Assembly (NCBI GenBank): GCA_050734155.1
Contig: JBOHUD010000064.1
Coordinates: 138,181-202,180 of the forward strand
Length of the DNA stretch: 64,000 bases
Origin: Candidatus Dormibacteria bacterium
Lineage (GTDB): Bacteria; Chloroflexota; Dormibacteria; Aeolococcales; Aeolococcaceae
Direction: 5' to 3'
The number at the start of each line of letters is the position of its first letter. The first letter of the stretch is position 1. Both the position numbers and the translations under genes were made by a program. The notes beneath the pieces are model-generated. The model saw nothing but the letters and a program-made list of their open reading frames with translations, made no database searches and was not told the DNA's origin. Below, in pieces: positions 34,261 to 36,338 of the stretch.

Positions 34261-34683
34261 TCACTCCGAGCGGCGGTCGCGGTGGTGGCCGCGCCGGATC
34301 TCGGCGACGCGAAGCCGGAAGATCGCCCGCTCCAGCCGGGCGGCGGCGTCGGCGTCGCCCTCGTCCTGGGCCAGCGCCTCCTGCGCGGATCTCCGGGCCT
34401 CCTGGGCGGCGGCCTCGTCGATGTCCTCGGCGCGCTCGGCGACGTCCGCCAGGATGACCACCCTGTCGGGCATGACCTCGAGGAAGCCGCCGGCCACGAA
34501 GAAGAAATCCTCGTGGCCATCGTTGCGGACCATGACCTCGCCGGTGCGCAGCGGCGTCAGCAGGGGGATGTGGCGGGGCAGCACGCCGAGGTCGCCCTCG
34601 ACACCGGGCGCGACCACGAAGTCCGCCTCCTGGCTGAGCACCCGGCGCTCGGCGGTGACCAGCTCGACCTGCAGCTTGGCCAC
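34261..34683 (-). CDS. atpC: F1Fo ATP synthase subunit epsilon
   Basis: 140 aa. MAKLQVELVTAERRVLSQEADFVVAPGVEGDLGVLPRHIPLLTPL. GTG start at 34683 overlaps the atpD TAG by 1 nt. Confidence 0.9.
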   Translation of the reverse strand: MAKLQVELVTAERRVLSQEADFVVAPGVEGDLGVLPRHIPLLTPLRTGEVMVRNDGHEDFFFVAGGFLEVMPDRVVILADVAERAEDIDEAAAQEARRSAQEALAQDEGDADAAARLERAIFRLRVAEIRRGHHRDRRSE

Positions 34684-36338
34684 TAGCGGCGCTTCCTCCT
34701 GGCGGGCGCCTTGGCGCTGGCCTTGGGCGCGGACTTCACCCCGGGTGAGCCGGCCTCACCCTGCTTCGCCTCCTTCTCTGACTCCTCCGCCGGCTCCTCA
34801 ACCGGCTCCTCAACCGGCTCCTCAACCGGCTCCTCTTCAGCCGTCTCCTCCCCCGCCGGCGGCGCGGCGGCGCCCTTCGCCTGCTCGGCGGGGGCGCTCT
34901 CAGCCTCGCCGCCGTCCAGCTCCCGGGCCTTCTCCACCGCCTCGTCGATGGTGCCGACCATGTAGAAGGCGTCCTCGGGAAGATCGTCGTGCTTGCCCTC
35001 GAGGATCTCGGTGAAGCCGCGGATGGTCTCCGCCAGGGGCACGTACTTGCCGGGTCGACCGGTGAACTGCTCGGCCACGAAGAAGGGCTGGGAGAGGAAG
35101 CGCTGCACGCGCCGGGCGCGCTGCACGGTCACCTTCTGGTCGTCGCTCAGCTCCTCCTGGCCGAGGATGGCGATGATGTCCTGCAGCTCCTTGTACTCCT
35201 GGAGCACGCGCTTGACACCCTGGGCGGCCCGGTAGTGATCATCACCGACGATGTTGGGATCGAGCACTCGGCTGAACGACTCCAGTGAGTCCACGGCGGG
35301 GTAGATGCCGATCTCGGTCAGCGCTCGGCTCAGCGACACCGTCGAGCCGAGGTGGGCGAAGGTGGTTGCCACCGCCGGGTCGGTGAAGTCGTCAGCGGGC
35401 ACGTACACCGCCTGCACCGAGGTGATCGAGCCCTTCTTGGTGGAGGTGATGCGCTCCTGCAGATCACCCATCTCCGTCCCCAGGGTGGGCTGGTAGCCCA
35501 CCGCGCTGGGCATGCGGCCGAGCAGCGCGGACACCTCGGCGCCGGCCAGCGTGTAGCGGAAGATGTTGTCGATGAACAGGAGCACGTCCGCGCTCTCCTC
35601 GTCGCGGAAGTGCTCGGCGATGGTGAGCCCGGTGAGCGCCACCCGCGCCCGCGCACCGGGAGGCTCATTCATCTGACCGAAGACGAGCGCCGTCTTGTCG
35701 AGGACGCCCGACTCCTCCATCTCGCCGTAGAGGTCACGGCCCTCGCGGGTGCGCTCCCCCACCCCGGCGAACACGGAGAAGCCACCGTGCTCCTTGGCGA
35801 TGTTGTTGATCATCTCCTGCACGATGACCGTCTTGCCCACACCGGCTCCGCCGAAGAGCCCGATCTTCGAACCCTTGCTGAACGTGCAGATCAGGTCGAT
35901 GACCTTGATCCCGGTCTCGAGGACCTGCTCCTCGGTCGACTGCTCGTCGATGGGGGGCGCCAGGCGATGGATCGGCGCCAGGGGCGCGTCGGTGAGCGCC
36001 GGCTTGCCGTCGATGGGCTGGCCGATGACGTTGAACATCCGCCCCAGCGTCTTGCGTCCCACCGCGACCTCGATGGGACCGCCGGTGTCCTCGAAGGTGT
36101 CGCCGCGGCGCAACCCGTCGGTGCTGGCCATGGCGATGGTGCGCACCGTGCTGTTGCCGAGGTTCTGCTGGACCTCGAGCACCAGCCGGCTGCCGTCATC
36201 GCGGTCGCGCTGGAGCGCGTTGTGGATGTCGGGGAGCCGGTCGCTGTCGAACTCCAGGTCGACCACAGGACCGATCACCTGCACCACCGTGCCGGCACCG
36301 ACACCCCGTTTCCTGCTCTTCTTCTCGGCGACTGCCAT
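34683..36338 (-). CDS. atpD: F1Fo ATP synthase subunit beta with ~75-aa low-complexity C-terminal extension
   Basis: 551 aa. Walker [17 protein letters not shown]-equivalent region. The conserved end ...[14 protein letters not shown] is followed by [76 protein letters not shown]. Confidence 0.93.
34791..34838. repeat. 12-bp tandem repeat (cggctcctcaac x3.5) encoding (EEPV)n in the atpD tail
   Basis: Direct reading of 34791-34838: cggctcctcaac cggctcctcaac cggctcctcaac cggctcctcttc. Confidence 0.9.

Follow-up and report, generated by a model that had tools for sequence, protein, structure and literature searches.

We analyzed a window of 64,000 nucleotides (nt) from a Candidatus Dormibacteria bacterium (contig JBOHUD010000064.1, positions 138,181 to 202,180 of the forward strand; all coordinates given here are counted within the window). 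The window carries an atp operon (34261-40901) with the gene order a, c, b, delta, alpha, gamma, beta, epsilon, all on the minus strand, in which atpD, the gene for the F1 beta subunit of the ATP synthase, lies between the genes for gamma and epsilon. Few known proteins are as highly conserved as the beta subunit. In this operon, the encoded beta subunit bears a C-terminal tail of 77 residues past its conserved core, and it is this tail, its status as coding sequence, its variation among relatives and its possible role that are considered here (Table 1).

The AtpD protein has all three domains of a beta subunit, the N-terminal beta-barrel, the nucleotide-binding domain and the C-terminal helical domain (PF02874, E = 4e-19; PF00006, E = 1.2e-69; PF22919, E = 3.9e-16), with the last Pfam match stopping at residue 445. 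The Walker A motif GGAGVGKT is found at residues 163-170, and G163 to T170 are invariant among the aligned relatives, while the DELSEED-type loop reads EELSDD (residues 395-400). The best match among solved structures was the Caldalkalibacillus beta subunit (PDB 2qe7_D, 717 bits), for which the alignment stops at query residue 474, that is, at the C-terminus of that chain. For almost all of the remaining solved beta subunits, the alignment stops at query residues 473-475 with few residues left over, the overall range extending to residue 491. A separate case among solved chains is PDB 9vkp_D, a beta subunit of 515 residues that is aligned up to its residue 477 and has about 38 C-terminal residues beyond, which are either natural or a tag. 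At the opposite end of the Dormibacteria protein, a short basic extension of about 14 residues (36297-36338, minus strand) precedes the point at which solved subunits start aligning; M1 and A2 are nearly invariant among the relatives, and the segment is low in model confidence. The alpha subunit in the window is of ordinary length (507 amino acids, ending in ..EEFKKGFAG) and has no extension, and the remaining ATP synthase subunits in the window are likewise of ordinary length.

Table 1. Features of the atpD-atpC region, in window coordinates.
Feature	Coordinates	Strand	Basis
atpD, F1 beta subunit, 551 amino acids (stop codon included in the coordinates)	34683..36338	minus	Open reading frame (ORF); Pfam PF02874/PF00006/PF22919; 717 bits to PDB 2qe7_D
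Conserved beta core, residues 1-474	34917..36338	minus	Pfam; PDB alignments; invariant columns
C-terminal tail, residues 475-551, 77 amino acids, predicted disordered	34686..34916	minus	AlphaFold2; no Pfam match; no homologue when searched alone
Proximal acidic head, residues 475-496, start fits the clade-wide GG[GDS]EDExAP	34851..34916	minus	Tail alignment; core clustering
Acidic block, residues 497-529, net charge about -14	34752..34850	minus	Sequence; charge analysis
12-bp tandem repeat, 4.5 copies, 95% matches, encoding (EEPV)3-EEPA-EE, E502-E519	34782..34835	minus	Tandem Repeats Finder
Basic end, residues 530-551, net charge +8, alignable with L001 and P0001	34686..34751	minus	Alignment; charge analysis
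Codons AGG AGG AAG (R547 R548 K549), Shine-Dalgarno-like AGGAGGAA	34692..34700	minus	GGAGG core 11 nt upstream of the atpC GTG
atpC, epsilon subunit, 140 amino acids, GTG start overlapping the atpD TAG stop (TAGTG)	34261..34683	minus	ORF; Pfam

As read from the alignments, the tail consists of three parts, namely an acidic head that is conserved in the clade, a hypervariable acidic body built of repeats, and a basic end that is conserved only in the closest relatives. When the closest tails were aligned, the head (..ELGGxEDExAP) was conserved, the end was conserved in the query and in the relatives L001 and P0001, and the body was unalignable. The tail holds 20 acidic and 11 basic residues whose mean positions within it are 30 and 61, respectively, and proline recurs at every fourth residue of the repeat. 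The initial annotation had described an extension of about 75 residues with acidic and basic charges segregated along it and encoded in part by a 12-bp tandem repeat at 34791-34838, and all three claims hold. The extension runs to 77 residues past residue 474 with the sequence as first given, the repeat is placed by Tandem Repeats Finder at 34782-34835, and the charge-segregation parameter kappa is about 0.36 as against 0.16 in shuffled tails, a value that only 0.13% of 20,000 shuffles reach.

In the AlphaFold2 model (built on a 51-sequence alignment), the last helix spans residues 464-476, and residues 478-551 have a predicted local distance difference test (pLDDT) score of 28-38 and no secondary structure; the model is of a monomer and parts of its core are only moderately confident, the contrast with the preceding helices being clear all the same. 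A protein search with the tail only returned 428 word-sharing candidates, none of them at E <= 1e-3, and the possibility that the tail is a recognizable module common to other proteins was rejected on this result. Among about 50 genes called in the window, which is a small sample, such a low-complexity segment occurs only in AtpD.

Whether a stretch of this kind is truly coding needs caution, as a stop-free frame of 77 codons at 71% G+C has a probability of about 0.26 from base composition and is hence not significant alone. Since an open frame says little at such a G+C content, the case for the tail must rest on other evidence. The G+C content at codon positions 1, 2 and 3 is 0.81, 0.56 and 0.87 in the tail and 0.68, 0.42 and 0.92 in the core, that is, highest at the third and lowest at the second position in both. 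In the species representatives nearest to the window (L001-L011), in which atpC was located by tblastn, the atpC start lies between -4 and +8 nt from the atpD stop, with tails of 0 to 135 residues. As the junction is kept whatever the length of the tail, the tail is extra in-frame sequence between the core and atpC and not a spacer opened by the loss of a stop. A read-through of the normal stop, which had been named as the finding that would overturn the extension, was rejected accordingly, as a stop at that place is missing from every relative and the atpC start adjoins the atpD stop throughout L001-L011.

It could still be supposed that a sequencing or assembly error deleted the true stop or that the tail is a mis-assembled repeat, given that the open frame is not improbable by chance and that repeats are prone to mis-assembly. 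We consider an artefact of this kind extremely improbable, however, because the same architecture recurs in dozens of independent assemblies, both on long contigs (1.7 and 1.9 Mb) and on short ones; because the distance from the end of the core to atpC is 231 nt here, whereas tail-less relatives have atpC directly after the core; because the repeat is only 54 nt long with a 12-nt unit, so that miscounted copies would keep the frame; and because the head and the end are alignable with relatives. Judged from the sequences and the structural model, the tail is a genuine, lineage-specific coding feature of low complexity that is predicted to be intrinsically disordered.

We then compared the tail across relatives using two sets, the 120 best protein clusters plus the query (121 in total) and a set of species-representative genomes comprising 18 Dormibacterota loci and 61 scorable loci of other phyla (Clostridia, Chloroflexota, Planctomycetota, Marinimicrobia, Acidobacteriota and others). 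The nearest genomes are all metagenome-assembled genomes of Candidatus Dormibacterota, with core identities of 93% for L001 and 89% for Candidatus Amunia macphersoniae (L004). The cores of the relatives are 73-94% identical to the query, some being identical to one another, and their tails reach up to 182 residues. A tail of at least 20 residues was found in 81 of the 121 nearest protein clusters (range 20-182 residues) and in 12 of the 18 Dormibacterota species genomes; none of the 61 scorable loci of other phyla has a tail of that length, the longest there being 14 residues. When the cores were grouped (by average-linkage clustering, which does not amount to a true phylogeny), tails of 35-182 residues were present in all 31 clusters whose cores diverge from the query by no more than about 10%, and nearly all tails of this clade open with the head GG[GDS]EDExAP. 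In another clade, at 20% divergence, the tails measure 71-165 residues and have a well-conserved basic end of their own (PAKKAxAPSxRAKKAKPDKGS). Tail-less clusters end after a stub of 0-5 residues, commonly ESEG or AAEEG. From these counts, the tail appears as the norm for the clade of the query and is rare or absent elsewhere among the bacteria sampled.

The tails differ greatly in sequence and are alike in composition. Pooled, they contain 25% Ala, 24% Asp+Glu, 13.5% Lys and 11% Pro, and the residues L, I, M, F, W, Y and C make up 0.7% as compared to 23% in the cores. The fraction K/(K+R) is 0.865 in the pooled tails versus 0.37 in the cores, in a genome of 71% G+C. Base composition at this G+C content would yield roughly 5% Asp+Glu and 1% Lys, and since the observed values are far above this expectation, the skew is not mutational. 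Of the 69 tails that have at least 40 residues, 64 have a body with a net negative charge. The end of the tail is net positive by at least +3 in 36 of these 69 long tails and neutral or acidic in 32, most members of the query's own clade being without a basic end.

Tandem repeats were found in the tails of 9 of 12 relatives, with units of 6-51 nt that are unrelated between lineages, and all 18 reported repeat periods are multiples of three. Tail lengths are unequal in 174 of 185 protein pairs whose cores are at least 97% identical, and proteins with 100% identical cores have tails that are 8-42 residues apart in length. By these patterns, the tails lengthen and shorten by in-frame expansion and contraction of tandem repeats, as the suggestion of repeat-copy-number variation in the initial annotation had anticipated. 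In the comparison of orthologues that it had proposed, the tail is kept in the whole query clade with its head conserved in nearly all members, and the body and the repeat units are not conserved. Likewise, its view that such an extension is unusual holds for bacterial beta subunits in general and fails within the lineage, where the tail is the rule. To look at copy-number variation directly, further contigs of this species were sought in Joint Genome Institute (JGI) metagenomes using a flank-gap-flank DNA pattern, and no match was obtained. A 36-nt repeat pattern matched only two low-G+C contigs, L081 and L082 (Ga0180432_10017593 and Ga0180432_10018965), which are otherwise unrelated in sequence and carry at least nine tandem copies of the 12-bp unit CTCCTCAACCGG (at 1-140 of L081). 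We take these two contigs as convergent use of an (EEPV)n-type repeat and not as a related locus.

At its downstream end, the tail meets atpC. The product of atpC begins with MAKLQVELVT and has both epsilon domains by Pfam. The final codons of atpD are GCC AGG AGG AAG CGC CGC TAG (the stop codon occupying 34683-34685), and AGG, which makes up 6.4% of the Arg codons in the genes of the window, nonetheless occurs here twice in a row. A like arrangement (CGG AGG AAG) is seen at the end of atpD in L001, and most relatives have a purine-rich stretch just upstream of atpC. The last residues of beta and the Shine-Dalgarno-like AGGAGGAA of epsilon thus lie on the same nucleotides (34681-34700, minus strand), and the last codons of the tail probably double as the ribosome-binding site of atpC. 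Because AGG AGG AAG forms a likely Shine-Dalgarno sequence for atpC, the conservation of the terminal RRK may be at the nucleotide level, which leaves a functional basic tip with less in its favor than would otherwise appear. The wider basic patch of the tail end is not accounted for in this manner. The C-terminus of epsilon is also strongly basic, following its C-terminal helix, in nearly all of the 18 Dormibacterota loci (L012 and L016 are the exceptions); in the window it ends in ..RRGHHRDRRSE (34264-34330, minus strand). Across these 18 loci, no co-variation is seen between the basic C-terminus of epsilon and the length of the beta tail, and a co-evolved pair of beta tail and epsilon end is unsupported, as the latter is independent of the former.

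Beta subunits have their C-terminus on the outer, membrane-facing rim of F1, as known from F1 structures. Since the relatives seem to retain nothing of the tail beyond its composition, its disorder and a minimum length, a sequence-independent function is favored, and our leading, still tentative, reading is that the tail may act as a hydrated, mostly polyanionic charged brush or spacer at this rim, retained for its bulk physical properties and not for a specific sequence. Each complex would have three such tails of about 77 residues, which would emerge at the membrane-proximal rim and surround the base of F1, where a non-sticky, hydrated brush could keep F1 heads apart from one another and from other macromolecules, or could preserve hydration. 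In the subclade of the query, the polybasic tip may also bend back onto the acidic block or make contact with anionic lipids. Participation of the tail in the catalytic or rotary mechanism is unlikely. Several points weigh against a brush. As many as 36 of the 121 clusters, several of them named Dormibacterota, have no more than five extra residues, so that the tail must be dispensable for a working ATP synthase; the polyanionic character is not universal, because the bodies in one subclade (P0077, P0084 and P0100) are neutral or slightly basic; part of the variation in tail length may be short-read assembly noise in repeats; and the filtering of composition could mean only that sticky sequence is selected against, which would fit a tail without function equally well. 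Such a tail is a close rival to the brush, possible though doubtful in our estimate. It would be a non-functional, low-complexity product of slippage at a permissive, solvent-exposed C-terminus, perhaps seeded by a short purine-rich acidic stub carrying the atpC ribosome-binding site, and it would persist because it is harmless, with selection removing only sticky or frame-breaking variants. Such an origin agrees with the absence of sequence conservation in the body, with repeat units that are unrelated between lineages, with lengths that vary among identical cores, with the 36 related clusters that stop after a stub, and with the lack of any predicted folded structure. However, it sits poorly with the observation that all 31 clusters of the query clade keep at least 35 residues despite complete turnover of the body, that head and end are conserved while the body is not, that the composition is extremely far from mutational expectation, and that no other gene among the approximately 50 in the window has a comparable segment. 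The deletion bias of bacteria should, moreover, erode useless sequence, which counts against a neutral passenger.

A more specific role, that of an auto-inhibitory or tethering element, was raised in the initial annotation. In such a role, the acidic linker would deliver the polybasic tip to an acidic target, either the DELSEED-type loop of beta or the region of gamma and epsilon, thereby blocking ATP hydrolysis in the manner of the epsilon C-terminal domain or the mycobacterial alpha extension, or the anionic membrane, thereby tethering F1. The significant segregation of charge, a basic end that is conserved in the closest relatives when the body is not, the separately conserved basic end of the second clade and the 36 long tails ending at +3 or above are in line with such a role. 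So is the reach of a 77-residue disordered chain, which from the geometry of F1Fo could extend from the bottom of F1 to the stalk or the membrane, and there is a mycobacterial precedent for extensions of catalytic subunits that bind the rotor (PMC10049701, PMC12796488). We nevertheless regard auto-inhibition or tethering as unlikely. The 32 long tails that end neutral or acidic include most of the query's clade, the tail is highly variable, rare codons of the likely Shine-Dalgarno sequence (AGG AGG AAG) specify its last three basic residues, hydrophobic and amphipathic elements are absent from the tip, the basic end of epsilon does not co-vary with the tail, and no helix, folded element or docking is predicted. 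The tail could also act on translation at the level of the mRNA. Ribosomes would then pause on its purine-rich GAG/AAG/AGG sequence, or this sequence would be a standby or re-initiation platform governing how much epsilon is made relative to beta, and the peptide would be a by-product. The several GAGGAG motifs and one AAGGAGG in the tail in addition to the terminal AGGAGGAA, the overlap of stop and start (TAGTG), and the purine-rich sequence upstream of atpC in most relatives would suit a role of this type, but we judge it very unlikely, as Glu-Glu in a G+C-rich genome is necessarily GAGGAG and the motifs follow from composition, tail-less relatives are coupled equally tightly, many tails are rich in Ala, Pro, Thr and Asp and have few such motifs, and the avoidance of hydrophobic residues points to a constraint at the protein level. 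Returning to the brush or tether, a further and rather speculative extension, which we consider improbable at present, is that an element found only in Dormibacterota, its length reset at strain level by repeat slippage, adapts the ATP synthase to long dormancy in dry, cold, nutrient-poor soils. The basic tip could dock on the acidic collar of F1 or on the membrane and so suppress wasteful ATP hydrolysis, or the tail could protect and space the complexes during desiccation in the manner of hydrophilins or late embryogenesis abundant (LEA) proteins.

Some further features surround the atpD-atpC region. Subunit a has about 28 hydrophilic residues past its Pfam ATP-synt_A match (40080-40160, minus strand). 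Directly upstream of atpB are two small hydrophobic ORFs of 120 and 104 amino acids (40904-41266 and 41263-41577, minus strand), which have no Pfam match and whose position suggests AtpI/AtpZ-like proteins. Downstream of atpC (29011-34203) lie genes for an APH-family phosphotransferase, an acyl-CoA dehydrogenase, a DeoC/LacD-family aldolase (on the opposite strand) and an EPSP-synthase-family (MurA-like) enzyme.

The tail would matter under either outcome. If it is functional, it would be a new kind of accessory element for bacterial F-type ATP synthases, to be placed beside the epsilon C-terminal domain, zeta and the mycobacterial alpha extension, and it would be found in an uncultured phylum known for its persistence in poor soils. 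If the link to dormancy were true, it would amount to a new mode of regulation or protection of the bacterial F-type ATP synthase on its most conserved subunit. If it is neutral, it is a clean natural case of the drift of a disordered tail on an essential and abundant enzyme under selection for composition only. A specialist would be mildly surprised by such a tail on beta; the feature is experimentally tractable, and a neutral origin is a serious possibility. In practical terms, the length of the tail could help to tell strains of Dormibacterota apart, and annotators should not trim such tails as errors.

Several subunit extensions are listed in a survey of ATP synthase genes across prokaryotes, none of them on the C-terminus of beta (PMC4154653), and our literature search on bacterial beta C-terminal extensions and on features of the Dormibacterota ATP synthase returned no description of the tail, which, within the limits of the literature searched, appears to be previously undescribed. 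Extensions of beta are known from mitochondria. In Amoebozoa, they form helices around alpha, and the C-terminal extension of Acanthamoeba, of 118 residues, begins at the membrane-facing rim of F1, wraps the neighboring alpha with its helices and contacts the peripheral stalk (PMC13632647). The extension of Dictyostelium has 58 residues and those of Polytomella and other chlorophycean algae about 60, in line with the Polytomella beta chain 6rd4_X, in which about 59 residues lie past the aligned core. The Dormibacterota tail resembles these in being a lineage-specific addition of similar length at the very C-terminus of beta. It differs in being bacterial, Pro-rich, of low complexity, predicted to be disordered and hypervariable between strains; it has neither a predicted helical fold of the mitochondrial kind (no secondary structure, with the pLDDT values given above for the monomer model only) nor sequence homology to it, as the tail alone is without a match at E <= 1e-3.

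A bacterial extension for comparison is that at the C-terminus of the mycobacterial alpha subunit, which suppresses ATP hydrolysis (PMC10049701, PMC12796488). Both are C-terminal, on a subunit of the alpha3beta3 ring and at the stalk-facing end of F1, and both belong to Terrabacteria lineages adapted to persistence. The mycobacterial extension, however, is short and conserved, contacts gamma specifically, blocks rotation in the direction of hydrolysis and is located on alpha, whereas in the window alpha has no extension, and the tail is on beta with an unconserved body. In regulation of the Bacillus and Escherichia coli type, the basic C-terminal domain of epsilon binds the acidic DELSEED loop of beta. 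Located close to the bottom of F1, the basic segment of the tail might in principle extend to the corresponding EELSDD loop; unlike that domain, the tip of the tail is not predicted to be helical, and the epsilon of the window already has a helical domain and a basic end. In its behavior, the tail resembles the C-terminal tail of FtsZ (a linker followed by conserved and variable C-terminal regions), the function of which depends on sequence features of the disordered region and not on the exact sequence (bioRxiv 10.1101/301622). Both have a linker whose length and sequence vary greatly under a constrained composition, and a short, sometimes basic terminal segment, although the proteins are unrelated, the terminal peptide of FtsZ has known partners, and the end of the beta tail is conserved only within subclades. 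In essence, an extension positioned on the catalytic ring of F1 is of a known kind, and it is the bacterial setting, the predicted disorder, the construction from repeats and the strain-level length polymorphism that set the Dormibacterota tail apart.

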